The position numbers were made by a program, and so were the translations under genes. The notes under the pieces were generated by a model. That model did not search any database and was not told the DNA's origin. It saw nothing but the letters and a program-made list of their open reading frames with translations. Below are positions 3,307 to 49,202 of a stretch of 64,000 nt of DNA, in pieces (positions within the stretch are counted from its first letter, which is position 1; the number at the start of each line of letters is the position of its first letter). The DNA comes from Parvularculaceae bacterium (GTDB taxonomy: Bacteria > Pseudomonadota > Alphaproteobacteria > Caulobacterales > Parvularculaceae): positions 1,038,282-1,102,281 of the forward strand of contig OZ253669.1 in NCBI GenBank assembly GCA_965263375.1. The letters are read 5' to 3'.

Positions 3307-4242
3307 ATGGATGAAAAGAAGAAAACCTCCTTTCAAGGGCTGATTCTAACCTTGCAAAACTATTGGGCTGAACGGGGCTGCGTGCTTCTGCAACCCTATG
3401 ACATGGAAATGGGGGCGGGCACTTTTCACCCGGCGACGACCCTGCGTGCGCTTGGGCCAAAACCGTGGAAGGCGGCTTATGTTCAACCTTGCCGTCGCCC
3501 GACCGATGGGCGCTATGGCGCGAACCCGAACCGTTTCCAACACTATTACCAGTTCCAAGTGGTCTTGAAGCCAAGTCCGGACAATATTCAAGAGCTATAT
3601 CTCGGCTCCCTTGACGCCATAGGCGTTGATCGGTCTATCCATGACATTCGGTTTGTGGAGGATGATTGGGAAAGCCCGACGCTTGGCGCCTGGGGCCTTG
3701 GCTGGGAGGTTTGGTGCGACGGCATGGAAGTCACCCAGTTTACATATTTTCAACAAGTTGGCGGTTTTGAGTGCAAACCTGTAACGGGCGAGATTACATA
3801 CGGTCTTGAGCGACTCGCCATGTATGTCCAAGGGGTCGATAATGGCTATGATCTAGACTTTAATGGCGCCGAAGGCGAAGACGCGATGACTTATGGCGAT
3901 GTGTTCCACCAACAGGAAGTTGAGTTTTCCGCCTATAATTTTGAAATAGCGAACACGGATGACTTGTTTGATCAATTTAAAGAGGCCGAGGCTGCGTGCC
4001 TGGCGATTTTAAAAACAGGTGAAGAAAAAGGCCGCCCCGTGCCGCTGCCTGCTTATGATCAGTGCATAAAAGCCAGCCATCTGTTCAATTTGCTTGATGC
4101 GCGCGGTGTGATCTCTGTTGCTGAACGCCAATCCTATATTTTGCGTGTGCGGACATTGGCCAAAGCCTGCTGCGCCGAATGGCTTGACAGCCCCCAAGGG
4201 CGCACCGAAGGTGCCGGCGTTGTCGATTATGAGGCGGTTTAG
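3307..4242 (+). CDS. glyQ: glycine--tRNA ligase alpha subunit
   Basis: 311 aa. [62 protein letters not shown] and [16 protein letters not shown] are near-identical to canonical GlyQ blocks. Confidence 0.95.
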
Positions 4243-12058: not shown

Positions 12059-12259
12059 ATGCCCAAGATGAAGACTAAGTCTGGCGCGAAGAAGCGCTTT
12101 AAAATGACCTCCTCTGGCAAGGTCGTCGCCGGCGGCGCTGGTAAGCGTCACGGCATGATCAAGCGCACGAACAAACAGATCCGTCAAAATCGCGGCACAT
12201 CCGTGCTTGCGGATCCTGATGCGCGCATTGTCAAAAAATATATGCCTTATAACCGGTAG
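12059..12259 (+). CDS. rpmI: 50S ribosomal protein L35
   Basis: [22 protein letters not shown]... from the ATG at 12059. The longer ORF from 11978 is an artefactual extension. Confidence 0.93.
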
Positions 12260-12272
12260 GAGGGATTAAAGA

Positions 12273-12629
12273 ATGTCACGGGTTAAACGGGGCGTTACAA
12301 AACACGCCCGCCATAAAAAAGTTACCAGCGCGGCGAAAGGCTATTATGGCCGCCGCAAAAACACTTTCCGCATCGCCAACCAGGCTGTGGAAAAAGCTGG
12401 CCAGTATGCTTATCGCGACCGCCGCGCGAAAAAACGCAATTTCCGCAGTCTTTGGATCCAGCGGATTAATGCGGCAGCCCGCGAGTTAGATATGACTTAT
12501 TCGCGCTTTATGCATGGCCTTGCACAAGCGGGGATTGAGGTTGACCGTAAGGTTCTTGCTGACATCGCAGTGAAAGAACCAGAAGCCTTTAAAGCCCTTG
12601 CAGAGCAGGCTAAAGCGGCTCTCGCATAG
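12273..12629 (+). CDS. rplT: 50S ribosomal protein L20
   Basis: [17 protein letters not shown]...YRDRR.KKR.FR.LWI.RINAA is canonical L20. Confidence 0.95.
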
Positions 12630-12650: not shown

Positions 12651-12683
12651 AAAAAACGCCGCTCAAAAGCGGCGTTTTTTTTA
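12651..12683 (+). terminator. rho-independent terminator after rplT
   Basis: ACGCCGC-TCAAAA-GCGGCGT followed by T8. Confidence 0.75.
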
Positions 12684-12946: not shown

Positions 12947-13213
12947 ATGATCCGGTCTAAACTTTTCTCAGCTATCCTTGTCGCTGGTGTTGCTCTTACT
13001 TCTGCAGCGCAAGCAAATCAAATGTCCATCTCTTACGATTCATCTCGTATGGATGATCCTGCTTATGTTTCTGAGCTTCGCACGAAAGTGATGAAAGCAG
13101 CGCAAAACTATTGCCGTCAGCAATTAGCGGGCGCCTATACATACAGAGGCTTCAACAAATGTGTTGATGAAACTGTATCTCAAACGTGGGCTGGTCTTAA
13201 GTCACAAGCTTAA
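12947..13213 (+). CDS. UrcA-family secreted small protein
   Basis: 88 aa with a signal peptide. The pattern 'ISYDSS..DDPAYV..L..KV..AA..YC' with two Cys is like UrcA-family proteins. Confidence 0.6.
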   Translation: MIRSKLFSAILVAGVALTSAAQANQMSISYDSSRMDDPAYVSELRTKVMKAAQNYCRQQLAGAYTYRGFNKCVDETVSQTWAGLKSQA

Positions 13214-13295: not shown

Positions 13296-13539
13296 TTAAG
13301 GCGCTCCCGCGCGGCGGGGGTGACGCCCGCGCTAATTCCCGCTAAGCCAAGGGTTCCTATCTTGTACAATTATAAAGGAAGAGCTCTAATGGAGAGTTTT
13401 TATTATCGGTCTTGGTATCGATGAAAACGGCGATGGTCTACATGATCGAGCGCGAGAAAAAATATTACCAGCCATATTCAATGAAGAAACTATGTCTTTC
13501 GACATAATCAATCCCGAAACAGAGTAAAAATCCCATTCC

Positions 13540-14493
13540 ATGTCTGACCTAAACGTTCTTGAGCAAAATCTTACTGATGAAATCAATGCCGCCGCGGATG
13601 AAACGTCGTTGGAGGCTGTGCGCCTATCCGCCCTTGGTAAAGAGGGTGCGGTCAGCAAGCAGCTACAAACCCTTGGCAAGATGAGCATTGAAGAACGCAA
13701 ACAAATGGGGCCGGTCTTAAACGGGCTAAAAACGCGCATTACAAAAGCGATCGACGATAAAAAACTTCAGCTTGAAGAAGAAGCCTTTGAGGCGCGCCTT
13801 GCCAGCGAAGCGATTGACGTGACCCTTCCTATTCGGCCTGAAGCCATGGGCAAGATCCACCCCATCACACAGGTGAGGGAGGAGCTGGTCAGATTAGTCG
13901 CCCCCTTAGGGTTTGACCTTATTGATTCTGGACCTGGCGAAGGGGCTGCATTGGCCGCTCCCGTCGCCGCCCTAAAAGGGCGTACGGCGCCAACCCGTCT
14001 TATGCTCTTTAATCAAAACTTTGATGAAGATAAAAAAGATGGGTTCACCGGCCATTTGCTTGAAGGGGTCATCGTGGAAAAAGCGATCCATATGGGTCAT
14101 TTGAACGGTTTCTTCAAGACGGTTGTCAGCGCTTTTCTAGGGTTACCAATAGCGCCCATGCGCTTGCGCCCAGATTTTTATCCGGTTACGGAACCTTCTG
14201 CGGTGATGGAGCTGTCTTATGCGCAAACTGGCGGTCTATTAAAGGTTGGGGAGGGAGACCTTTGGGCGCCGGTTGCCGGGGGCGGTATGTTGCGGCCCCA
14301 GGTTTTGGCGGATAACGGCCTTAACCCCAGCGAGGTTCAGGCATGCGTTTGGCGATTTAGCCTCGATCGTCTCACCATGTTAAAATATGGAATTGGGGAG
14401 CAAAAAGAACTTTACACCGCTGATGCGGGTTGGCTCGCCCATTATGGTTTTGAGCCGCTTGTCCAGCCGAATTTAGTGACGGGATCAAACTAA
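13540..14493 (+). CDS. pheS: PheS-like protein (phenylalanine--tRNA ligase alpha-subunit homologue with eroded catalytic motifs)
   Basis: 317 aa. The N-terminal coiled-coil region and C-terminal ...DRLTMLKYGI...WLAHYGF are clearly PheS. The HPAR motif, the LLRTHTS...PGRxYR block, DATHxPxFHQ and motif 3 (GFAFGMGxxR) are altered or missing (see findings). Confidence 0.8.
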   Translation: MSDLNVLEQNLTDEINAAADETSLEAVRLSALGKEGAVSKQLQTLGKMSIEERKQMGPVLNGLKTRITKAIDDKKLQLEEEAFEARLASEAIDVTLPIRPEAMGKIHPITQVREELVRLVAPLGFDLIDSGPGEGAALAAPVAALKGRTAPTRLMLFNQNFDEDKKDGFTGHLLEGVIVEKAIHMGHLNGFFKTVVSAFLGLPIAPMRLRPDFYPVTEPSAVMELSYAQTGGLLKVGEGDLWAPVAGGGMLRPQVLADNGLNPSEVQACVWRFSLDRLTMLKYGIGEQKELYTADAGWLAHYGFEPLVQPNLVTGSN

Positions 14494-14891
14494 TGACCGC
14501 AGATGAACGACCTGAAGGCGCGCTGACGATACGCACCGTTGCGATGCCAGCGGACGCAAATGCTAATGGCGATATTTTCGGCGGCTGGGTCTTGTCACAG
14601 ATGGATATTGCCGGAGGTATAGCGGCGTCGGAGCGTTCCAACGGTCGGGCCGCCACTGTGGCGGTTGAGGCGATGACGTTTTTAAAGCCTGTCCATATCG
14701 GTAATGTTTTGTGCGTCTACACCCAGGTGCTTGGTGTCGGCAATACTTCTATGCGCATACAGGTAGAGGCTTGGGCGCGCCGTCAGCTTACTAATGATCG
14801 TGTTAAGGTGACAGAAGGGGTCTTCACATTTGTGGCGATTGATGAAAATCGGCAAAAGCGCTTGGTTCCAGCTGAAGGCGATCTGTTGTAA
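14493..14891 (+). CDS. yciA: YciA-type acyl-CoA thioesterase (hotdog fold)
   Basis: 132 aa. LTIRTVAMPADANANGDIFGGWVLSQMDIAGGIAA...VEAMTFLKPVHIGNVL is near-colinear with E. coli YciA as I recall it. The start overlaps the pheS-like stop (TAATG). Confidence 0.88.
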   Translation: MTADERPEGALTIRTVAMPADANANGDIFGGWVLSQMDIAGGIAASERSNGRAATVAVEAMTFLKPVHIGNVLCVYTQVLGVGNTSMRIQVEAWARRQLTNDRVKVTEGVFTFVAIDENRQKRLVPAEGDLL

Positions 14892-14918: not shown

Positions 14919-16703
14919 ATGAAATTCTCTCTTAGTTTGCTTAAAGAGCATTTGAAGATAAATGCTGACCTTGATGAGATTGTTGCGGCAATGCTATCGC
15001 TCGGCTTGAACGTTAAGTCGGTTGATAATCCAGCGGAACGCCTAAAAGACTTTACGATCGCTGAAGTATTAGAGGCGGAAAAGCACCCAGATGCTGATAA
15101 GCTGCGGGTGTGTAAAGTCGCTACAAAAGATGGTGAAAAACAAATCGTATGCGGCGCACCGAATGCCCGGGCCGGAATAAAGGTCGCCTATGCGGCGGTG
15201 GGGACGTATGTGCCAGGTATCGATATCACCCTTTCTAAGGCGAAAATTCGCGGCGTTGAAAGCTTTGGCATGATGTGCTCAGCGCGCGAGCTTGAACTTG
15301 GTCAAGATCATGACGGAATAATTGAAGCGCCACAGGCGTCGCAAATCGGACAGGCGGTCGTCGAAGCGCTGAACGCCAACGATCCAATTGTTGAGTTCGA
15401 AGCTCCATCAAACCGTCCTGATGCAAATAAAATTGAGGGTGTTGCGCGCGAGCTTGCGGCTGCGGGGTTCGGGGAATTACTCGCCCCGATTGATGATGGC
15501 TCTTCGGTTATAAGGGAGCTTGAATTTTCCGCGCCGGAACTTCAAGCCCTGACCGGCGCCTCACTAGAGGCGATAACGGTCAAGCGGATTTTGGAAAGCC
15601 TTGGTTTTTCGATTAAAGAAAAAACCGGCTCCCTTTTGTCCGTCGGCATCCCTTCATGGCGTGCTGACGTGAAAGAAAGTGCTGATCTAGTTGAAGATAT
15701 TTTCCGGATTATCGGATATCGTGAAATTCCAGCTGTGCCGTTACCCGGTTTAGGGCATGTCCCGACCATATCGCCTTTATATATGCGCCAAGCGGGCGCC
15801 CGCCGTGTGTTGGCGTCGCGCGGTATGTTGGAATTGGTTGGTCATCCGGGTGCGTCGAATGAGTTCGCATCGTTCTTTCAAAGTAATAAAGACGAAGCTA
15901 ATGACGAAGCTAATGAAGCTCAGACGACACAGTCTCCTCAAAAGGACTTACTGTCCCAATCCCTTTTGCTAACCCTTCTTACTGCGATAAGGGAAAATGT
16001 TGATCGCGCTGCCGAGGGGCTTTCATTCTTTGAATTTGGTCCCATCGTGAAAGCTACGGCGGGGGCGGAGCATTTAACTGTTGTTGGCGGTATTCGTTCA
16101 TCGGGCCGCCCCCGTCACTGGCGGGATGGCTTGGGGCTGGTCGACGTGTTCAGTGTAAAGGCGGATGCTATGGCGACGCTTGAGGCGGCAGGCGCGAAGG
16201 TTTCCTCGCTTCAAACGGCGGTGGACGCGCCTACTTGGTTCCACCCAGGACGGTCAGGTGTTTTGCGCTTAGGGCCAAAGAATATTTTAGCCGCCTTTGG
16301 TGAAGTGCATCCCAAAATATTATTGGAGATGGGAATTGAAGATCGGGCGTACGCTTTTGAGGTCAATCTGAGTGCTATACCGGCCGCTAAACCGAGCAAG
16401 GGGACAGCAAAACCAGTTTATGAGGGTAGGGGTGAAACAGCCATTCGTTGTGATTTCGTCTTTACTGTCCCTAATGATGTGTCTGCCGAAGCGTTCCTTA
16501 ATGCCGTTAAAGGGACTGATAAAAAACATATTTCACATGTAAAGCTTACTGCGCTTAACGCAGCGGGCGAGCAAAAATCGTTATCCGTTGAGGTGACCTT
16601 TGCGCCAAAGGGTAAAACGCTGGATGACGAGGCGATTTCAGCGCTTTCAGCAAAAATTGCTGCTCAAGTGGATAAAGCCACGGGTGGGACGATGCTGAGT
16701 TAG
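14919..16703 (+). CDS. pheT: PheT-like protein (phenylalanine--tRNA ligase beta-subunit homologue lacking the B3/4 editing domain)
   Basis: 594 aa, versus about 800 aa usual. The tRNA_bind OB domain (HPDADKLRVC...VCGAPNA...RGVESFGMMCS), B5-like region (PSWRADV..DLVEDIFRIIGY..IP) and C-terminal FDX-ACB-like region are present. The roughly 200-aa B3/4 segment between SNRPDA... and B5 is absent. Confidence 0.8.
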   Translation: MKFSLSLLKEHLKINADLDEIVAAMLSLGLNVKSVDNPAERLKDFTIAEVLEAEKHPDADKLRVCKVATKDGEKQIVCGAPNARAGIKVAYAAVGTYVPGIDITLSKAKIRGVESFGMMCSARELELGQDHDGIIEAPQASQIGQAVVEALNANDPIVEFEAPSNRPDANKIEGVARELAAAGFGELLAPIDDGSSVIRELEFSAPELQALTGASLEAITVKRILESLGFSIKEKTGSLLSVGIPSWRADVKESADLVEDIFRIIGYREIPAVPLPGLGHVPTISPLYMRQAGARRVLASRGMLELVGHPGASNEFASFFQSNKDEANDEANEAQTTQSPQKDLLSQSLLLTLLTAIRENVDRAAEGLSFFEFGPIVKATAGAEHLTVVGGIRSSGRPRHWRDGLGLVDVFSVKADAMATLEAAGAKVSSLQTAVDAPTWFHPGRSGVLRLGPKNILAAFGEVHPKILLEMGIEDRAYAFEVNLSAIPAAKPSKGTAKPVYEGRGETAIRCDFVFTVPNDVSAEAFLNAVKGTDKKHISHVKLTALNAAGEQKSLSVEVTFAPKGKTLDDEAISALSAKIAAQVDKATGGTMLS

Positions 16704-16785: not shown

Positions 16786-16861
16786 GCCGCATTAGCTCAG
16801 CTGGTAGAGCACATCATTCGTAATGATGGGGTCAGGTGTTCAAGTCACCTATGCGGCACCA
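16786..16861 (+). tRNA. tRNA-Thr (anticodon CGU)
   Basis: Manual cloverleaf: acceptor GCCGCAT/ATGCGGC, D-arm GCTC-AGCTGGTA-GAGC, anticodon arm CATCA-TTCGTAA-TGATG, T-arm AGGTG-TTCAAGT-CACCT, encoded CCA. Confidence 0.9.
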
Positions 16862-17086
16862 GTAAAATCAATGACTTAGATGGGTTTTGTGGTTTGGTTC
16901 AAGGTAGTGTGCTACCAGGGCGCTACCATGAGGATTGATTTCACGGCTATTGATACCTCCCGTCTAAAGAGGTTTTATAGAAAAATAATTAATGCAGTTT
17001 TTCTGGCCAATACCCGAATTATACAAATCATGGAGAATATTGGCAAAGATAGCCATTTGAATGATATTAACTGATAGGGGGAGCTG

Positions 17087-18220
17087 ATGAATAATCATAC
17101 TACCAGTAAAGATGCTGAAAACTCCAATCTTGGATGGCTTAGAAAAGTTTGGAGACAATTCAAAAAGACAGACACATATGGCATCTTAGTTGATGTTATA
17201 GCAGGTGGGGTACCTTTTGGTTTGACGTTGGGTGGCCTCTTGTTGATAGTAATTGGAAGCATCCCTGAGAAACCAGACATATTTATGCGGTCGGTGGCAG
17301 GGGCTGGCAGCGCTATTTTAGCAGGTGGCGTATTCTCTGTGATACTCAAAACAATGCAAGTTAGAGGCGTTTTTCAAGATACTCTCAGCAAAGTTTTGTT
17401 TGATGAGCCTTATCTTAAAAAACGGAATGACCTAAGGGAGTTGTGGTCAAAGGTGACTAGCCTGATTTCGAAACAAAGATTTTCGACATTAGAGAGTCAT
17501 ATGCATGAAGCAATAATGGAGCATTATATTCCAACCAAAGATGATTATTATTTTGAAAATTATTATCGAACATGTGTGGTTAGGTGGAACAATGAAGAAA
17601 CTACAGAAATTTCGCTGAGTGAAGAGATTTCACTGCACATTGTTCCCACGAGTGCAGATGCTGAGATTACATATAAATTTTCATCTAGTCCAAGCCCGGG
17701 AGTGCCTTTAGAAGTGGCTTGTCCGAAAGTTGATTATCTAAAGATAAATAACAAAGTTTATTTTGAAAACGGAAAACCCTTAAAAGAAGAGTATATACAG
17801 GAAGGCAAGGGGAAAGAGGGCGAGGAATTTAAAGTCGCAATACCGCTTGCGGGCTCGAAACGCTACGTAGTTGAAAGACGGTCTCACCGAACATTTCCTA
17901 TGGGGGTTGATCCATTTCAGCGCTATGTTTCGCCAAGATTTATTAAAGGCGCTAAAATTAACGTTCACTGCATTGCTAAAAACTTGCGCGTTCGTTTTGT
18001 ATCGCTAGGAACGCCAAATGAGTTTTCAAGCTTTTTCCCTAAGGAGATTGCGGACATATCTCGTGCGGGGGATATCAACCGCGAATACCCAGGTTTGCTA
18101 TTTCCTGAACAAGGGTATCTACTCGTCTTTCATTATCTTGATCCAAAACTTGTGAAGAGGTTTGATGTTCAGACAAATACGGCCTCGGAAGAAGGCGCGG
18201 CCGCATCTGCCAAAAATTAG
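17087..18220 (+). CDS. orphan hypothetical protein with two N-terminal TM helices and a roughly 280-aa soluble domain
   Basis: 377-aa ORF preceded by a GGGGGAG RBS. Markedly AT-rich coding sequence compared with the flanks. No family recognised. Confidence 0.6.
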   Translation: MNNHTTSKDAENSNLGWLRKVWRQFKKTDTYGILVDVIAGGVPFGLTLGGLLLIVIGSIPEKPDIFMRSVAGAGSAILAGGVFSVILKTMQVRGVFQDTLSKVLFDEPYLKKRNDLRELWSKVTSLISKQRFSTLESHMHEAIMEHYIPTKDDYYFENYYRTCVVRWNNEETTEISLSEEISLHIVPTSADAEITYKFSSSPSPGVPLEVACPKVDYLKINNKVYFENGKPLKEEYIQEGKGKEGEEFKVAIPLAGSKRYVVERRSHRTFPMGVDPFQRYVSPRFIKGAKINVHCIAKNLRVRFVSLGTPNEFSSFFPKEIADISRAGDINREYPGLLFPEQGYLLVFHYLDPKLVKRFDVQTNTASEEGAAASAKN

Positions 18221-18474
18221 TCCCGCGGACGCCGATAATTACGGACAGTAAAACAACGAGTTATTTTTGTCATGTTTGGTGCGCTGCCGTGGTGCGAATC
18301 TTGCGATAAATTGAACACACCCTGCTGAGAGTTAACCTAGCTTTGACAAAAATCAGCCCAATATCTCTGTAGTCAGGGTTGAGATGGAGTTAACCTTTTG
18401 TTAACTGTTTCACCTGCCAGTTGATTCTATAGAAGTTTATTCCGCCTTTACCGATGTTTAGAAAGGGTTTAGAA

Positions 18475-18630
18475 ATGGCTAGTTACCTAGGTTTTTGTTT
18501 GGAGTATCAAACTTTGGCTTCACTAGTGCCCTCAGCTCTTGGAACTGAAACCATGCTTGGAACTGAAACCATGCTTGGAACTGAAACCATGCTTGGAACT
18601 GAAACCATGCTTGGAACTGAAACCATGTAG
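18475..18630 (+). CDS. possible micro-ORF: 51-aa peptide MASYLGFCLEYQTLASLVPSA(LGTETM)x5
   Basis: ATG at 18475 with an AAGGG 7 nt upstream. The ORF reads through all five repeat units and stops at TAG directly after the last unit, with a strong terminator 27 nt downstream. Coding status unproven because other frames of the repeat are also open. Confidence 0.3.
   Translation: MASYLGFCLEYQTLASLVPSALGTETMLGTETMLGTETMLGTETMLGTETM
18538..18627. repeat. perfect tandem direct repeat, 5 x 18 bp (CTTGGAACTGAAACCATG)
   Basis: Read directly: units at 18538-18555, 18556-18573, 18574-18591, 18592-18609 and 18610-18627, with no mismatches and no spacers. Confidence 0.97.
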
Positions 18631-18657
18631 CTAGCTTTAAGATTTAGAGCTGTTAGT

Positions 18658-18683
18658 GCGGGGCAAATTGCCCCGCTTTTTTG
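18658..18683 (+). terminator. rho-independent terminator
   Basis: GCGGGGC-AAATT-GCCCCGC followed by TTTTTT. Only the + strand has the U-run. Confidence 0.75.
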
Positions 18684-18724
18684 TCTAAGTTGAAAAATGG
18701 TTGCCGATTAGAATACCATGAGCG

Positions 18725-19168
18725 CTAGCTACGGAGGCTATAAATTACCAGGTGAGACGTAGCGTTTTTTTTCACTCCATTATCAGCCAGTCCCAATTCC
18801 CGTGCAATGATGTTGGCGTTCAGCATGCTGGCCGCGGCGCCTTCAAATTTCTGCACCCAAATGATGCTCTCCGCTCGTGTAATGATATCAAGAAAACCTT
18901 CGCGCTTTTTGTAATTGAGCCAGGTGGGCAAGCTTATATCGAGGTGTCGGCATAAACCGCTAAGGGTCATGGCGCGCATCTTGGGAATGTCTATGACGGT
19001 GACAGCACCACGATAGGTGAATGCCTTTCTTCGATAGAGCGGGTTCGTCTCCACCCATTCGAAATATTGTTCGCACGCGTCCCACAACTCATCCGGCGAA
19101 GCGAATTTCGGCTTTCGCCCGTGGGGCGTGCGTTGCTTCCAAAATTGATTTCCTTTAGCGGCTGACAT
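18725..19168 (-). CDS. phage terminase small subunit / DNA-packaging protein (orphan)
   Basis: 147 aa. GNQFW..R..HGRKPKF.SPDELWDACEQYFEW...NP ... MTLSGLCRHLDIS..TWLNY resembles the HTH-type small terminase family. No large terminase is adjacent. Confidence 0.6.
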   Translation of the reverse strand: MSAAKGNQFWKQRTPHGRKPKFASPDELWDACEQYFEWVETNPLYRRKAFTYRGAVTVIDIPKMRAMTLSGLCRHLDISLPTWLNYKKREGFLDIITRAESIIWVQKFEGAAASMLNANIIARELGLADNGVKKNATSHLVIYSLRS

Positions 19169-19225
19169 GGTCAGTATCTCCTTATGGGATAGTCCGTGGC
19201 CGCTATCCGCCTGTTAAAATACTCC

Positions 19226-19576
19226 CTAACGGATAAGCCTTACCCCGGGCCCTTCGCCTTCGAGAAACTGAATGCCGCGGGCGGTAAACGCGTCAACGAT
19301 ACGGTCAATCGCGAAACCTGCCATGCCCCATTTTTCCTCCCGGGCTTCCCAATGAGTGAGGGTCTTCGGGTGAAGCCCGGCCGCCTGAGCAAGTTGCTTT
19401 TGCGAAAGGCCGGCTAAGGCGCGAGCGGCGGCAATCTGACGACCCGTTGTAATTGTGCCTGTAGAAATCAATACCCGGTTCCGGGTGATGGGAGCAACAG
19501 GCAGCTTCGAACTTGTCTGCTTGGTTGGTTCGCCATCGAGCGATAGAAAACCCATGTTTGCTGTTTTTGTCATCAC
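19226..19576 (-). CDS. XRE-family helix-turn-helix transcriptional regulator
   Basis: 116 aa. GRQIAAARALAGLSQKQLAQAAGLHPKTLTHWE is a classic XRE HTH. A GGAG RBS lies upstream of the ATG at 19576. Confidence 0.75.
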   Translation of the reverse strand: MMTKTANMGFLSLDGEPTKQTSSKLPVAPITRNRVLISTGTITTGRQIAAARALAGLSQKQLAQAAGLHPKTLTHWEAREEKWGMAGFAIDRIVDAFTARGIQFLEGEGPGVRLIR

Positions 19577-19746
19577 AAAGTTTCTCCAATTTTCAATTGC
19601 ACCATTCCACTCGCCCTGGATGCCCCCTCAATCGCCCCAGATTGAGTCAGGATTCGCAAATGCACCTCTTTTGCACCCTTACCGTGACCCGACCCCTTTG
19701 AACGCAGCCGATTTGAAGTAGTACAAATTAGCAAAGGAGACGTTCA

Positions 19747-20019
19747 ATGTCTGGGAAGAGATACGGGCCGGAAGAGGCCATCAACAAATTACGTGAAGCC
19801 GATATTCTGTTGGGCCAGGGTAAAACAGTTGGCGAAGTGATCCGTCAGCTCGGTGTGAATAAAGTGACTTACTACAGGTGGCGCCGAGAGTTTGGCGGCA
19901 TGAAAGTCGAACAGGCGAAACGGCTGAAGGAACTGGAAAAAGAAAATGGCCGGTTGAAGCGTCTTCTGGCTGACGCCGAACTCGATAAAGCGATCCTCAA
20001 GGAAGCCGCGTCGGGGTGA
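19747..20019 (+). CDS. IS3-family transposase OrfA (HTH / leucine zipper)
   Basis: 90 aa. ...VTYYRWRREFGGM..EQAKRLKELEKENGRLKRLLADAELDKAILKEAASG is typical IS3 OrfA. It ends at TGA 20017-20019. Confidence 0.85.
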   Translation: MSGKRYGPEEAINKLREADILLGQGKTVGEVIRQLGVNKVTYYRWRREFGGMKVEQAKRLKELEKENGRLKRLLADAELDKAILKEAASG

Positions 20020-20934
20020 TTGAATTCAATCACGGTAGGGCCTTCACGCAAACGCGACTTTATTGAACATGCTTGCGATAAGCTCGGCGTCTCAGAACGC
20101 CGGGCTTGTCGCCTGCTCAAGCAACATCGTTCAACGCAGTGGCGTAAACCGCAAAAAGTTGACGATGAAGATGCGCTGACCATCGCCATTATTGAGCTGG
20201 CGAGCATCTATGGCCGCTATGGCTACAAGCGGATTACGGCGTTGCTGAAAGCAATTGGCTGGCATGTGAACCACAAACGCGTGGCGCGTATCTGGAAGCG
20301 TGAAGGCCTGAAAGTTCCGAAAAAACAGCCCAAACGCGGCAGGCTATGGCTGAATGGCGGGTCGTGCGTTCGCTTGCGGCCGCAACACCGCAACCATGTT
20401 TGGAGTTATGATTTCGTGCAGGATAAAACCCGCGACGGGAAGAAGTTCCGCATGCTCACCGTCATTGATGAGTTCACCCGCGAATGTCTGGCAATTACTG
20501 TCGCACGGCGGCTGAACAGTCAGGACGTTCTTGATGTTCTGGCCGATCTGATGACGACGCGCGGCGTCCCCGATCACATTCGTTCAGATAACGGCGGCGA
20601 ATTCCGGGCCAAAGCGGTACAGAAACTACTCGGCAAAGTCGGCGTGAAAACCCTTTACATAGAACCGGGTTCGCCATGGGAAAACGGATACAATGAATCT
20701 TTCAATGGCCGATTGCGTGACGAGTGCTTAAACGTGGAGCTTTTCAATAATTTGATGGAGGCCAAAATCATCATTGAGCAATGGCGTGTCCGATACAACA
20801 CAATCCGTCCGCATTCAGCCTTGCAGTACAAACCGCCAGCGCCGGAAACATTAAACCCGGCCGATCTGGCTCCCGCTATTTGGCAGCTCCCGCCAGACCG
20901 GCCTTCCATCGAAAGCAATAGTATGGTTGCATAG
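20020..20934 (+). CDS. IS3-family transposase OrfB (rve/DDE integrase core), in the same frame as OrfA
   Basis: ...[17 protein letters not shown]...[10 protein letters not shown]...HVWSYDF...[12 protein letters not shown]...IRSDNGGEF...[18 protein letters not shown]... The frame continues directly from the OrfA stop codon. Confidence 0.85.
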
Positions 20935-21101
20935 AAGGTGGCTGCGCCATCGGGGTTTCGTCAGATTTACCCTTGCAACAATGGCGATGGCTGGATTTCG
21001 GATCAATTTGATCGCCATCGGCATAATCACTTTGGTCGGTTATTATCTAGCGCCTATGGTATTAAGGTAGTTTGATTTATCTCATTTCTTGAGAGGAATA
21101 C

Positions 21102-46066: not shown

Positions 46067-46780
46067 TTATTCCGTCATTTTACGGATTGTATCTTTTATT
46101 CGGTCGTCTTCTTGTTGGAGCATGCGCTGCCCCATTTCATAGGTGCGCTGAACCTCAATCAAATGGGCGATTTCAGTAACAGCATTGACATTTGAACCTT
46201 CAACAGCGCCCTGTAAAAGGCGCGCATCAGTCGCTGGCTCGTAACCTTCTTCAGTGGAAAAGACATTGTCGCCCTCGCGAGTTAAGCTCGCCCGATTGGT
46301 TGTGACCATGCCGATTTGGCCGATCGCTTGTCCATCAGCGCTTAAAGTGCCGTCTGCCGAAGCCGTTATGGCGCTTGTTCCAGCTGGAATAGCTAATGCG
46401 CCGCCGCCATTGTTCAATACACGGAAGCCTTCTTGCGTTGAAAGCTCGCCTTGGCCGTTTAAGGTGAATGAACCAGCGCGGGTTAACCGCTCGCCATTGG
46501 GGGTTTCAACAAGGAAAAACGCGTCACCTTCGATTGCAAAGTCAAGTTTGTTATCGGTGACAGTAACTTCCCCTTGGCTTAAATCGATGATGTGGCGGTT
46601 CATCACCGCCATGGAAAGGCTGGGGTCTTCCATGTCGAGAGCTTTAATATGCTCTGAAAAAGAAGTGGCTTCACGGCGATAGCCCGCCGTGTTTACGTTC
46701 GCAATGTTATTCGCGATTATGTTGAGCTGTTTAAATAACCCAGACTGACGGGTGAGGGCGACATAGCTAGCGTTATCCAT
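46067..46780 (-). CDS. flgF: flagellar proximal rod protein FlgF
   Basis: 237 aa. MDNASYVALTRQSGL...L..IANNIANVNT.GYRRE and C-terminal ...GAVEGSNVN.V.E...LIEVQR.YE. Confidence 0.88.
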   Translation of the reverse strand: MDNASYVALTRQSGLFKQLNIIANNIANVNTAGYRREATSFSEHIKALDMEDPSLSMAVMNRHIIDLSQGEVTVTDNKLDFAIEGDAFFLVETPNGERLTRAGSFTLNGQGELSTQEGFRVLNNGGGALAIPAGTSAITASADGTLSADGQAIGQIGMVTTNRASLTREGDNVFSTEEGYEPATDARLLQGAVEGSNVNAVTEIAHLIEVQRTYEMGQRMLQQEDDRIKDTIRKMTE

Positions 46781-49202
46781 TGCGCAGCGCCTCCTTGATC
46801 ATTTGCAACTCGTCACGCGCTTCTTGGGCTGCAATTTGGCCTTGGTTTAAAACCGATCCTGTTGGTTGATCAGCAAACAGTGCTTTAACGCCATTTAGCG
46901 CCGTACTATCTTCTTTCGTTAAAACAGCTTCAACAATTGCTGGGGGCTTTTCAGCGCCGGTCATATATGAGGAAAGGGCGTATTGAATGGCGGTTTTTTC
47001 ACCAATTAAAACGGGATTTAATGCGGCAAAAGCGCGGTTAGCGCTTTGCCAATCACCGGCGCGCCAAGCCGCTTGCGCCATAAGAACGGCTTTTTTATCC
47101 GATTCTGGTAAAGCCGTCGCCGCGGCGAGGGCGGCGTAGTTTCGTTCAAGCTGAAGGTTCGCTTTAACTAATAACTCTGCAAACGCTGGTTGATCGGCAT
47201 ATGCTGATGCAGTTGATAGCGTTCTGTCTGGAACATCTGCTTTTAGGGCTGCTTGTGCTTTTTGTAAGGAGTAGTCAGCGTTGCCTTGATACGGATTATG
47301 GTGAAGCACCTTAAACGCTACATTCGGCAGCCCGATTTCCATAGCTGTAACTGCTACCGTTTTGCGAAAGGCTGCATCATCATCGGGCGTATCGACAAAG
47401 GAGCGATGGCGCAAATATGCCGATACTGCGGAAATCTTTTTGTTTTGCTTATCATGGCGTAGGGAGTTGGCGATGAGTTCGCGAGATTTCTCAAGCGCCT
47501 TTTGCGCGTATGCCTCATCCTTTTTTGCAAGGCTGCGCAGCATTAAAATTGCCGCCTCTAATTCCCCTTCATTCGCCCAAGCAACCGCTTCTAGGAACTG
47601 TGCTTTAGAGCTGGTTTCAGAACCGCGAGTGGTCGTGGCAACTGCGCCGATATCATCATAAAACCCTTCGTGGGGTTCCTCGCCGTTCGCATATTGTTCC
47701 GCGAGCGCCACAAGTGCGTCTTTCGATGCTTCATTGTCTTTGCCAGCAATGCTCAACAGGGTTTCACGCGAAGAGACGCCATCGCCCTCATGAGCTTGCA
47801 ATTGAGCCTGCACGAAGGTGAGGTCAGGTGAGAATACTTCTGAAACATCTGCGGCAAAATCGAAAAAACGTTGCGCCTGTTCCCAATCGCCTGCTTCCAC
47901 CATTTTTCTGGCGATCCGTGTTGCGATCAATGCTTGCAAGCGTTTTGGTAAGGTTTTTACAGCGTCGCCGGATTGGCGGGCAGGGCCCACCGCGTCTTCT
48001 GGAGTATTTGCGGCCGCTTGCCAAAGGGCGTGAGAATTTTTGCAGTCGATGGCGCTGAGTAAAGGGCCACCTTTAGGCAAGGTCGTTTCAGCAAGCGCGC
48101 GCGCCATATCGGCGCGAATGGTGCGACCGGCGCCATGATCAGATAGTATTGCAAGGGCCTCTTCGCCAAAGCCGATTGATAAAAATCCATCCGCCAATTG
48201 CTCGGCTAAGGCGCGCTGTCCGTCATAATCTGCATGGGCAAGTTCGGTTTGCACTTCAGATATTGCAACAAGCGGCTCGTCCTCAAAAGGCTTGCCATTG
48301 ATTTTGAAAGCTTGCTCAGGATAGCACTCGCCTGGTTTGATTCTTCTTGCTGTCTTCTTTTGCTTACCGCCTGGCAATAACAAGTGATCGGAAAGTTCGT
48401 CAGCGGCTTTTTTGTCGTCCTTGGCGCTGGCTACTTCTTCATATAGCGGAATTTTATCTTTCGCATCATCGCGAATGTTGATCAAACCTTCTTTTGCGGC
48501 TTGGCGAAGCAGGTCGAGCATGCGGTTATGCGCCCGCTCAACTGATAAGAGGTCTTCTTTTTCGTTGTCAGCTTTATCGATCGATATTTCATTGATCGCT
48601 GGTTTAGGCTTATCGATTTTTTTCGGTTCTAAGTTTGAGGGCTCTGTTGATGTCAATGCAGCGGTGATTGCATCAGCGGGCTTTGAAGCTGGTTCAGGGG
48701 CCTTTGGTTTTGGCGTCTGCGCTGGCGTTTGCGTTGGCGTTTGCACTGGCGACTGCGCTGTCGACTGTGCGACTTTCGTGGCGGTTGTGTTCTTTGGAGC
48801 GACATCATTGTCATAAATATCGATAACTATTTTGCCGTTTGAAAGATTTTTGCTCAGGACTTCGCAATCACAAGTCAAAGTTAATGATACAAGCGTCCCG
48901 TTTTCATTAGGGCGTGCGCTTGCATTGAGGACACGATGTGCTTTGCGTCGTTCCAACAAATCAGCCAAGTTTATGTCTGATATATTTGTATCAAGAGAAA
49001 TTTTTATCTGTCGGCCTTGCTGTGTAATAGAAGTATTTTTTGCGTTTGCGGATAATACAACGCGTGAGTATGCACCGTGCTCGCCGGCTGATACCAATAC
49101 TGTCTCAGCGCCATAGGCAGATGAGAAAGATCCCACACAAACAGGAATAGCGGCCCATAGAAGGGCCGCAATTTTAGGGGATGTTGAAAATAGATTACGC
49201 AT
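46773..49202 (-). CDS. large periplasmic hypothetical protein of the flagellar operon (AMIN-like N-domain, P/T/Q linker, helical TPR-like C-terminal region)
   Basis: 809-aa ORF with a signal peptide. The start overlaps the motA stop (TAATG) and the stop overlaps the flgF start by 8 nt. No named flagellar family recognised. Confidence 0.6.
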   Translation of the reverse strand: MRNLFSTSPKIAALLWAAIPVCVGSFSSAYGAETVLVSAGEHGAYSRVVLSANAKNTSITQQGRQIKISLDTNISDINLADLLERRKAHRVLNASARPNENGTLVSLTLTCDCEVLSKNLSNGKIVIDIYDNDVAPKNTTATKVAQSTAQSPVQTPTQTPAQTPKPKAPEPASKPADAITAALTSTEPSNLEPKKIDKPKPAINEISIDKADNEKEDLLSVERAHNRMLDLLRQAAKEGLINIRDDAKDKIPLYEEVASAKDDKKAADELSDHLLLPGGKQKKTARRIKPGECYPEQAFKINGKPFEDEPLVAISEVQTELAHADYDGQRALAEQLADGFLSIGFGEEALAILSDHGAGRTIRADMARALAETTLPKGGPLLSAIDCKNSHALWQAAANTPEDAVGPARQSGDAVKTLPKRLQALIATRIARKMVEAGDWEQAQRFFDFAADVSEVFSPDLTFVQAQLQAHEGDGVSSRETLLSIAGKDNEASKDALVALAEQYANGEEPHEGFYDDIGAVATTTRGSETSSKAQFLEAVAWANEGELEAAILMLRSLAKKDEAYAQKALEKSRELIANSLRHDKQNKKISAVSAYLRHRSFVDTPDDDAAFRKTVAVTAMEIGLPNVAFKVLHHNPYQGNADYSLQKAQAALKADVPDRTLSTASAYADQPAFAELLVKANLQLERNYAALAAATALPESDKKAVLMAQAAWRAGDWQSANRAFAALNPVLIGEKTAIQYALSSYMTGAEKPPAIVEAVLTKEDSTALNGVKALFADQPTGSVLNQGQIAAQEARDELQMIKEALRNG

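Follow-up and report, generated by a model that had tools for sequence, protein, structure and literature searches.

In a 64,000-nucleotide stretch of a Parvularculaceae genome (assembly GCA_965263375.1, contig OZ253669.1, positions 1,038,282 to 1,102,281; hereafter the window), the rplT-linked pheS and pheT genes encode a degenerate counterpart of phenylalanyl-tRNA synthetase (PheRS). As the sequence comparisons indicate, the PheS-like protein, here designated α′, is predicted to be catalytically dead, and the PheT-like protein, designated β′, has lost the B3/B4 editing domain. Both genes are intact open reading frames (ORFs) under relaxed but real purifying selection, and a cultured Roseivivax and a third lineage appear to have arrived at the same end-state independently. 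The explanation that we favor, to which we give roughly an even chance, is that α′ and β′ form a non-catalytic complex that probably binds tRNA, and that tRNA-Phe is charged by another PheRS.

Active site of α′ and editing domain of β′

The α′ gene (13540-14493, plus strand) lies 3′ of rpmI-rplT and 5′ of the pheT-like gene and encodes 317 amino acids with zero stops, in agreement with the original prediction, which had placed an intact ORF in the rplT-linked PheS slot. The PheS homology that had been proposed is borne out by profile hidden Markov models (HMMs): α′ matches PF02912 with 68.8 bits (residues 20-87) and PF01409 with 99.6 bits, the latter split in two stretches, and it matches the PheS chains of the PDB with E = 3.6e-37. 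On the pheS equivalog model TIGR00468, α′ reaches 127.3 bits, which is below the cutoff of 237.45, whereas its canonical relatives score 335-341. The AlphaFold2 model of α′, with a mean predicted local distance difference test (pLDDT) score of 81.6, retains the long coiled coil together with a class II sheet that is reduced, and its best Foldseek matches are bacterial PheS α chains. The GC content of the gene is 0.52 and that of its third codon positions (GC3) is 0.53, which resembles the neighboring genes, as had also been stated.

The protein was aligned to canonical alphaproteobacterial PheS and to Thermus thermophilus PheS, whose sequence was checked to be identical to PDB 1B70_A and whose numbering is used below. 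In the alignment, approximately 41-43 residues are missing between motif 1 and motif 2, which corresponds to the deletion of the HPAR/LRTHTS region that had been suspected, and a further deletion of two residues takes out the motif-2 arginine. The deleted positions are His143-Arg146 (HPAR), position 149 (W149), His178-Thr179-Ser180, Gln183 and the motif-2 Arg204, among which are residues invariant in the eight aligned canonical alphaproteobacterial PheS and in T. thermophilus. The replacements are H212D, F216G, Q218L, F258Y, F260V, E279P, H287R, G312A, F313C, A314V, G316R and G318S, and the kept residues are the motif-1 Pro140, Asp206, His217, Glu220, Gly221, Thr261-Glu262, Gly282/Gly284 and the motif-3 Arg321. 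The substitutions listed earlier for motif 2, GxGMVHP and motif 3 are found in this alignment as they had been read by eye. In one place, the earlier reading was in the wrong register: ALKGRTAPTRLMLF, which had been taken for an altered ALNxPxxHPAR motif, corresponds in the alignment to the lead-in of motif 2, 'IRTMxxxKPPIRIIxPG'. In the true register, AALAAP aligns to (T/D)ALN(F/I)P, and the HPAR motif of α′ is simply deleted.

Class II motif 2, as defined by the fRxE arginine, Phe216 and Gln218/Glu220, is lost from α′, where Asp206 and Glu220 alone are kept. The loop facing phenylalanine and its amino group (His178-Thr179-Ser180), the HPAR motif and the phenylalanine pocket formed by Phe258/Phe260/Ala314/Gly316 are lost as well, and motif 3 (GFAFGxGxxR) reads ACVWRFSLDR, in which Arg321 is the sole survivor. 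In published PheRS structures, the lost arginine contacts the α-phosphate of ATP and the lost phenylalanine stacks on the adenine; the loop and the glutamine hold the amino group of phenylalanine, other lost residues form the walls and the floor of its pocket, and Glu279 binds Mg. Because the active-site loops and the motif-2 arginine are gone, α′ is expected to be unable to bind ATP or phenylalanine. With the motif-2 arginine, the His-Thr-Ser loop, Phe216, Gln218, Phe260, Glu279 and Ala314/Gly316 deleted or replaced, the alignment supports the original prediction that α′ is catalytically dead.

β′ (594 amino acids, 14919-16703, plus strand) is also degenerate, which had escaped the original prediction. 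The tRNA_bind (B2), B5 and B6-7 domains and a weak B8 domain are present, and the Pfam scan gives no match to the B3_4 editing domain (PF03483), so that the full domain set of PheT is lacking. On the pheT model TIGR00472, β′ scores 341.1 bits against a cutoff of 402.65, compared with 645-694 for canonical relatives. The nearest canonical PheT (P0128, 806 amino acids) is encoded on a Tara scaffold, L083, which is treated here as the sister locus. In BLASTP, β′ residues 1-190 align to residues 1-190 of this protein with 80% identity, including a run of approximately 65 identical residues, and β′ residues 196-594 align to residues 402-804 with 44% identity (37-44% across the canonical PheT compared). 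Approximately 200 residues (canonical ~190-402) were thus excised in frame at domain boundaries, and the comparison with the canonical Parvularculaceae locus L003 is similar. The deletion covers 114-120 conserved canonical columns, and with B3/B4 gone, β′ is expected to be unable to proofread. The AlphaFold2 model has a mean pLDDT of 77.7 for the remaining domains; residues 323-345 form a low-complexity insert that is predicted to be disordered, and the DEAN-repeat segment, which has no counterpart in canonical PheT, is modeled with very low confidence.

The losses are unevenly distributed over the modules of the two proteins. Positions conserved in at least 90% of the canonical proteins of the same clade were counted per region. 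In α′, the arm keeps 26/27 of these positions, the motif-2 region 7/26 (27%) and the other regions 53-61%; in β′, the B2 OB-fold (oligonucleotide-binding fold) keeps 75/77, and B1, B5, B6-7 and B8 keep 56-73% (56-65% in the B5-B8 part). The α arm and the β B2 OB-fold are therefore the only modules at full conservation. In canonical alphaproteobacterial PheS, the core (66-94% identity) is better conserved than the arm (50-81%), and α′ reverses this pattern, with an arm 64-66% identical to Hyphococcus PheS arms and a core at 40%. The N-terminal part of β′ shows a ratio of nonsynonymous to synonymous substitution rates (dN/dS) of 0.06 relative to L083. In the PheRS-tRNA complex of T. thermophilus, the α coiled-coil arm serves solely to hold tRNA-Phe, and the B2 OB-fold of PheT belongs to the Trbp111/YtpR type of tRNA-binding domain. 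The conservation pattern thereby lends indirect support to the suggestion that α′ may still bind tRNA and its partner.

Locus history, selection and degenerate pairs in other lineages

At the sister locus L083, a canonical PheS C-terminus lies 5′ of PheT and a 100% identical tRNA-Thr(CGT) lies 3′ of it, and the canonical locus L003 is arranged in the same way, with the 322-amino-acid gene upstream as part of the shared order. Branch lengths were obtained by three-taxon arithmetic from the pairwise dN of the window, L083 and L003. The C-terminal part of PheT has a branch of approximately 0.40 toward the window and 0.11 toward L083, and the N-terminus has branches of approximately 0.09 and 0.04, respectively; over the PheS C-terminus, the window and L083 differ by a dN of 0.41, and L003 and L083 by 0.13. 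The synteny with L083 and these branch lengths indicate that the degeneration took place at the ancestral locus, after the split from a relative with normal pheST. A horizontal origin of the locus is ruled out by composition and by the synteny with L083, and the lineage of the window pheST is close to Hyphococcus/Parvularculaceae. The window rplT shows 69% identity to that of L003.

Between the genes of α′ and β′, there is a yciA-like gene, which scores 148 bits on the YciA model NF007970 (cutoff 162) and whose ATG start codon overlaps the stop codon of the pheS-like gene. On L001, a metagenome contig in ENA with the same rpmI-rplT-orf88-pheS-like-pheT-like arrangement, this gene was lost by a precise deletion between CTGAAGGCG repeats (3611-3650), where a 12-codon stub remains; the common ancestor that the window shares with L001 had yciA. 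Since it is absent from this place in 80/80 canonical loci, it lies outside the conserved unit.

L001 encodes the closest relative of α′ (P0001, 96% identical), which is the sole close relative among 5.8 billion proteins. The dN/dS ratios were calculated between the window and L001 using the Nei-Gojobori method at a dS of approximately 0.1. For α′, the ratio is 0.18 over the whole gene (23 synonymous and 14 nonsynonymous changes; p = 7e-7 against neutrality), 0.14 in the arm (6 and 3; p = 0.0068) and 0.19 in the degenerate core (17 and 11; p = 3.5e-5). For β′, it is 0.35 over the whole gene (37 and 42; p = 1.3e-5), 0.19 in the N-terminus (16.5 and 10.5; p = 8.3e-5) and 0.50 in the C-terminal part (20.5 and 31.5; p = 0.02). 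The background, given by 16 flagellar genes on a second contig of the same organism as L001, is 0.075 when pooled, with a range of 0-0.19. Fisher tests (p = 0.02 for α′ and 4.5e-8 for β′) indicate that both genes are less constrained than this background, and in a comparison of 22 genes between the strains, their dN is the highest.

Neutral evolution was simulated from the canonical sequences to the observed amino-acid divergence, with substitutions only and with indels ignored. The ORF of the α′ core stayed open in approximately 4% of the runs and that of the β′ C-terminal part in approximately 0.2%; because frameshifting indels were ignored, the true fractions would be lower still. Every indel observed is in frame, namely the ~43- and 2-residue deletions in α′, the B3/B4 excision and a 12-nucleotide difference in repeat copies in β′. 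The stops or frameshifts that would be expected of a pseudogene are found in neither gene in the two independent assemblies of the window and L001, and the agreement of these assemblies rules out a sequencing or assembly artefact. The two ORFs are intact, and the purifying selection on them, though relaxed, is real. With its catalytic residues lost, its predicted fold kept and its ORF maintained by selection, α′ has the features of a pseudoenzyme. The earlier view that it is retained rather than decaying is thereby upheld by the ratios in the whole protein and in its core, by the simulation and by the PheS-like AlphaFold2 model.

When 1.84 billion cluster representatives were searched exhaustively with HMMER, several short PheS-like proteins colinear with α′ were among the matches, two of which are degenerate in the same way. 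The first is from Roseivivax sediminis (P0256, WP_149755407.1, 309 amino acids), which NCBI names 'tRNA ligase subunit PheS family protein'; its neighbor WP_149755405.1 (774 amino acids) is named 'YtpR family tRNA-binding protein'. The genes 3′ of this pair are those found 3′ of the canonical pheST of R. isoporae (a nucleoside deoxyribosyltransferase-like gene, a glutathione S-transferase gene, mscL and a cation efflux gene), and the pair is no longer preceded by rpmI-rplT. Over the arm, its α′ shares 75% identity with the R. isoporae protein, and its β′ shares 64% with R. isoporae PheT; by these comparisons, the pair is a recent derivative within the genus. In R. sediminis, the Shine-Dalgarno sequence seen in the canonical relative is also preserved. 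Its β′ is nearly intact, with B3/B4 still present, and scores 503 bits on TIGR00472, above the cutoff. The second protein (P0261, 301 amino acids) is encoded on a 1.38-Mb JGI contig of 63% GC (L087, Ga0620600_0000003) in the order rpmI, rplT, the pheS-like gene, a nitroreductase gene on the opposite strand and a gene for a 593-amino-acid PheT-like protein without B3_4, so that the architecture resembles that of the window. On TIGR00468, the two α′ proteins score 87.5 bits (R. sediminis) and 60.9 bits (L087), and the L087 β′ scores 229 bits on TIGR00472.

In both additional pairs, as in the window, a short PheS-like protein at the ancestral locus has lost the same segment, its motifs 2 and 3 are ruined and its arm is conserved; L087 further shares with the window the class of PheT-like protein without B3/B4, from which the R. 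sediminis β′ differs. Measured on 222 canonical alphaproteobacterial PheS, the three α′ proteins keep 28-29/32 arm positions and 10-55% of the positions in the catalytic regions. The identities between the window and L087 (34% and 32.5%) are no closer than those to canonical proteins, and the deletion end-points differ among the three lineages, R. sediminis retaining a remnant of the THTSPVQ strand; the three cases are therefore regarded as independent. The gene between α′ and β′ also differs (yciA in the window, yrhK in R. sediminis and the nitroreductase in L087). On this sequence evidence, each degenerate α′ derives from the PheS of its own clade. The combination in R. sediminis of a dead α′ with a near-intact β′ suggests that catalysis was lost first and the editing domain later. 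The R. sediminis rplT was not among the 15 members listed of the 253 in the R. isoporae rplT 90% cluster, and a canonical R. sediminis PheS was not among the best 120 matches, where thousands of sequences score alike. In three proteins from other taxa, the segment between the motifs (HPAR...LRTHTS) is likewise missing, but motifs 2 and 3 are kept: P0291, P0317 (L089, 3760-4695, followed by a 752-amino-acid PheT with B3_4) and P0334 (L091, 10001-10969). These proteins may mark the beginning of such a decay, or may be artefacts of assembly or gene calling.

The above results bear on the alternative that the genes are young pseudogenes, which have drifted since pheST became dispensable after a replacement and whose ORFs are open only for lack of time. 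Such drift would agree with the highest dN of 22 genes and the Fisher tests against the background, with the large domain loss, with a locus that tolerates the insertion and deletion of yciA, and with the ratio of 0.50 in the β′ C-terminal part. However, even the dead core has a dN/dS significantly below 1, and the divergence from the canonical ancestor is large (PheS C-terminus, 0.41 vs 0.13), such that neutral drift would rarely leave both ORFs open. The arm and B2 show the conservation of working enzymes, the same parts are kept in three independent lineages, and R. sediminis retains the Shine-Dalgarno sequence of its canonical relative. We consider young pseudogenes to be unlikely.

A remodeled class II core with a new ligand or chemistry is a further alternative, and in our assessment a decidedly improbable one. 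It would fit the degenerate core being as constrained as the arm (dN/dS 0.19 vs 0.14), the retention of the motif-3 arginine, Glu220, the TEPS strand and GxGM, the confident prediction of the fold, and the placement of the deletions of all three lineages in one lid region. However, the loss of the motif-2 arginine and of the adenine-stacking phenylalanine and Mg-binding Glu279 makes class II nucleotide binding unlikely, and no shared new motif was seen across the three lineages. Membership in SrmL, a PheS-related 'mystery ligase' family (NF051887), is ruled out, as α′ scores 26.2 bits against a cutoff of 300, where canonical PheS reach 131-132 bits.

Features around the degenerate pair

The features of the locus are listed in Table 1, in which rpmI is the marker of the canonical rpmI-rplT-pheS-pheT neighborhood.

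Table 1. Features of the rplT-linked pheST locus in the window.
Feature	Position	Strand	Evidence and remarks
rpmI (ribosomal protein L35, 66 aa)	12059..12259	+	ORF; identical in L001 (PF01632 there)
rplT (ribosomal protein L20, 118 aa)	12273..12629	+	PF00453 in L001; dN = 0 vs L001
Hairpin and T-run CGCCGC-TCAAAA-GCGGCG-T8, 3′ of rplT	12652..12683	+	Read from sequence
88-aa ORF with signal-peptide-like N-terminus, between rplT and the pheS-like gene	12947..13213	+	Lineage-specific
PheS-like α′ arm, residues 1-105, coiled-coil, tRNA-binding type	13540..13854	+	PF02912, 68.8 bits
PheS-like α′ degenerate class II core, residues 106-317	13855..14493	+	Alignments; HPAR...LRTHTSPVQ segment deleted
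yciA-like acyl-CoA thioesterase (132 aa)	14493..14891	+	PF03061, 67 bits
PheT-like β′ B1 + B2 OB-fold (tRNA_bind), residues 1-200	14919..15518	+	PF01588, 78.5 bits
Junction of the lost B3/B4 editing domain in the β′ gene	15486..15518	+	No PF03483 match
PheT-like β′ B5, B6-B7 (catalytic-like), B8 (anticodon-binding), residues 201-594	15519..16703	+	PF03484, 71.5 bits; PF17759, 83.1 bits; PF03147, 34.2 bits
12-nt tandem repeat (DEAN DEAN) in the β′ gene	15887..15916	+	Copy number differs vs L001; in-frame 4-aa indel
tRNA-Thr(CGT)	16786..16861	+	Conserved landmark 3′ of the ancestral pheST locus

The hairpin 3′ of rplT is probably an intrinsic terminator, in which case the pheS-like gene would be uncoupled from rplT transcription; a simple promoter and terminator scan, which was uninformative overall, did not report it. 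The 88-amino-acid ORF has no Pfam match and is absent at 80 canonical pheST loci, and it is kept in L001 with a dN/dS of 0.07. A short aromatic-rich ORF, MESFYYRSWYR, is located at 13389-13424, approximately 115 nucleotides 5′ of the pheS-like start. The pheST genes of E. coli are controlled by a Phe-rich leader, and the short ORF could be a relic of a leader peptide or a product of chance; an Rfam scan gave no leader and no T-box.

The synteny with L001 stops right after tRNA-Thr(CGT), where a stretch of low GC content (0.39-0.45) starts (window 16862-21000). This stretch contains a 377-amino-acid protein without a Pfam match, a perfect 18-nucleotide tandem repeat in five copies (18538-18627), a 147-amino-acid ORF (18725-19168, minus strand) and an IS3-type transposase (19747-20934). 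At the sister locus L083 (3182-5200), an IS3-type element also follows the same tRNA-Thr(CGT), which therefore looks like an integration hotspot. Elsewhere in the window, an intact glyQ (α subunit of glycyl-tRNA synthetase, PF02091, 480 bits) lies at 3307-4242, and the next 3 kb contain small membrane proteins and an HTTM-domain protein instead of glyS. In the flagellar cluster, an 809-amino-acid protein without a Pfam domain (46773-49202, minus strand) is encoded between a motA-like gene and flgF, and it is kept in L084 with a dN/dS of 0.09.

Possible role of the pair and charging of tRNA-Phe

As the α active site and the β proofreading domain are lost, tRNA-Phe would have to be charged by something else. 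In the favored explanation, the native rplT-linked pheST would have been converted to a non-enzymatic α′/β′ pair, which would be kept as a tRNA-binding, non-catalytic complex derived from PheRS, and another PheRS, encoded at some other place in the 3.3-Mb genome, would make Phe-tRNA(Phe). The function would have been replaced first, after which the α active site would have died and the useless editing domain would have been lost. R. sediminis would represent an early-looking stage of this process, and the window and L087 late-looking stages.

Several points weigh against this explanation. The replacement PheRS is a premise by necessity: canonical PheS and PheT of this genome were not among the best 120 matches of two protein searches, which argues only against a close vertical duplicate with its own cluster representative, as a PheRS of foreign type would escape such a search. 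Binding of tRNA is suggested by conservation; B2 is not known to contact tRNA in the solved PheRS-tRNA complexes, and we know of no account of what B2 does in canonical PheRS. The dN/dS values derive from one pair of closely related genomes (dS ~0.1), and the ratios of α′ and β′ are the highest among the 22 genes, which indicates that the constraint is clearly weakened. There is no obvious Shine-Dalgarno sequence 5′ of α′ or β′, although this is uninformative because canonical relatives are also without one.

Two further searches concern the charging enzyme. A tblastn search of the 64-kb window with canonical PheS found the known locus alone, and the genome of the window was not among the at least 600 pheS matches listed in a scan of a genome collection, which were mostly canonical alphaproteobacterial pheS. 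Although plasmid matches to pheS were mostly mislabeled chromosomes, plasmid pAA02 of Aminobacter aminovorans (NZ_CP015007.1, 451 kb) carries a lone canonical-looking pheS (L090, 6001-7068) with no pheT adjacent, which indicates that extra α-subunit genes circulate on alphaproteobacterial replicons.

Such lone genes raise the alternative that only α′ is dead, as a leftover or a modulator, and that β′ serves a second, canonical α subunit encoded elsewhere, forming an editing-less PheRS. The near-intact R. sediminis β′, with its TIGR00472 score above the cutoff, and the retention of B5, B6-7 and B8 in β′ of the window are consistent with such an arrangement. However, an essential β subunit is expected to be strongly constrained, whereas the interface and anticodon-binding parts of β′ evolve fastest (dN/dS 0.50, 56-65% of conserved positions kept), and α′ itself is under selection. 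A working β′ is thus of low probability in our estimate.

It is very improbable that α′ and β′ are the sole active PheRS of the cell, with a highly unusual active site. In favor of this reading, the pair stands at the ancestral locus, no other PheRS of this genome was among the best 120 matches of the two protein searches, and the cultured isolate R. sediminis is in the same situation at its own ancestral locus. However, residues implicated in the chemistry, which are invariant in the canonical PheS aligned, are deleted, and the best-120 listings could not show a PheRS of foreign type.

A variant of the favored explanation with a small probability is that the pair, rather than being left over, acts as an obligatory platform or regulator that binds tRNA(Phe) and works with a separate, possibly non-canonical, Phe-activating enzyme. 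It draws its viability from the fact that alphaproteobacteria would have reached this division of labor at least three times by the same route. If true, it would imply a role of the PheRS α arm and the β B2 OB-fold that is independent of aminoacylation, as well as an unrecognized replacement PheRS.

Compared with the canonical bacterial (αβ)2 PheRS of T. thermophilus (1PYS/1B70/2IY5) and E. coli (3PCO), both subunits are homologous and occupy the same rpmI-rplT-pheS-pheT position, with the α arm, the β domains B1/B2/B5/B6-7/B8 and a predicted α′ fold that matches PheS chains. In contrast, the α′ active site is destroyed by a deletion of ~43 residues, β′ is without B3/B4, and both proteins fall below the NCBIfam equivalog cutoffs. 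HisZ is a catalytically inactive paralogue of histidyl-tRNA synthetase that regulates ATP phosphoribosyltransferase; like α′, it is homologous to class II synthetases, no longer aminoacylates and is maintained by selection, in its case for a non-catalytic role. However, HisZ is an old and widely distributed paralogue at a separate locus with HisG as its partner, whereas here the positional orthologue itself degenerated, in both subunits together, recently and repeatedly.

The best-conserved part of β′ resembles the stand-alone OB-fold tRNA-binding proteins YtpR (NF045760), TapR (NF045867) and Trbp111/CsaA. On the YtpR model, whose cutoff is 100, β′ reaches 120.7 bits, which does not discriminate because canonical PheT score 115-118 bits; unlike a stand-alone protein of ~200 amino acids, β′ is a 594-amino-acid multidomain derivative of PheT. 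Editing-deficient PheRS are known from human mitochondria, where the enzyme is a monomer without B3/B4, and from Mycoplasma, and β′ shares with them the absence of proofreading but differs in that the catalytic core is lost too. Dead synthetase homologues with other roles, stand-alone OB-fold proteins of the PheT N-terminal type and editing-less PheRS are thus already known. Nothing relevant to dead PheRS pairs, to a 'PheS family protein' or to YtpR came up in a literature search, and we found no description of a bacterial PheRS α/β pair that is dead in place at the rplT locus, yet retained and recurrent.

PheRS is essential, and the rplT-linked genes are treated in annotation and phylogenomics as universal, single-copy, vertically inherited markers. 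A degenerate pheST would mislead marker-gene phylogenies and completeness estimates; the NCBI pipeline already withholds the pheS and pheT names from the R. sediminis proteins. Two questions are raised, namely what charges tRNA-Phe in these bacteria and which non-catalytic job of the α arm and the β OB-fold merits their keeping, and both are experimentally approachable because R. sediminis is culturable.

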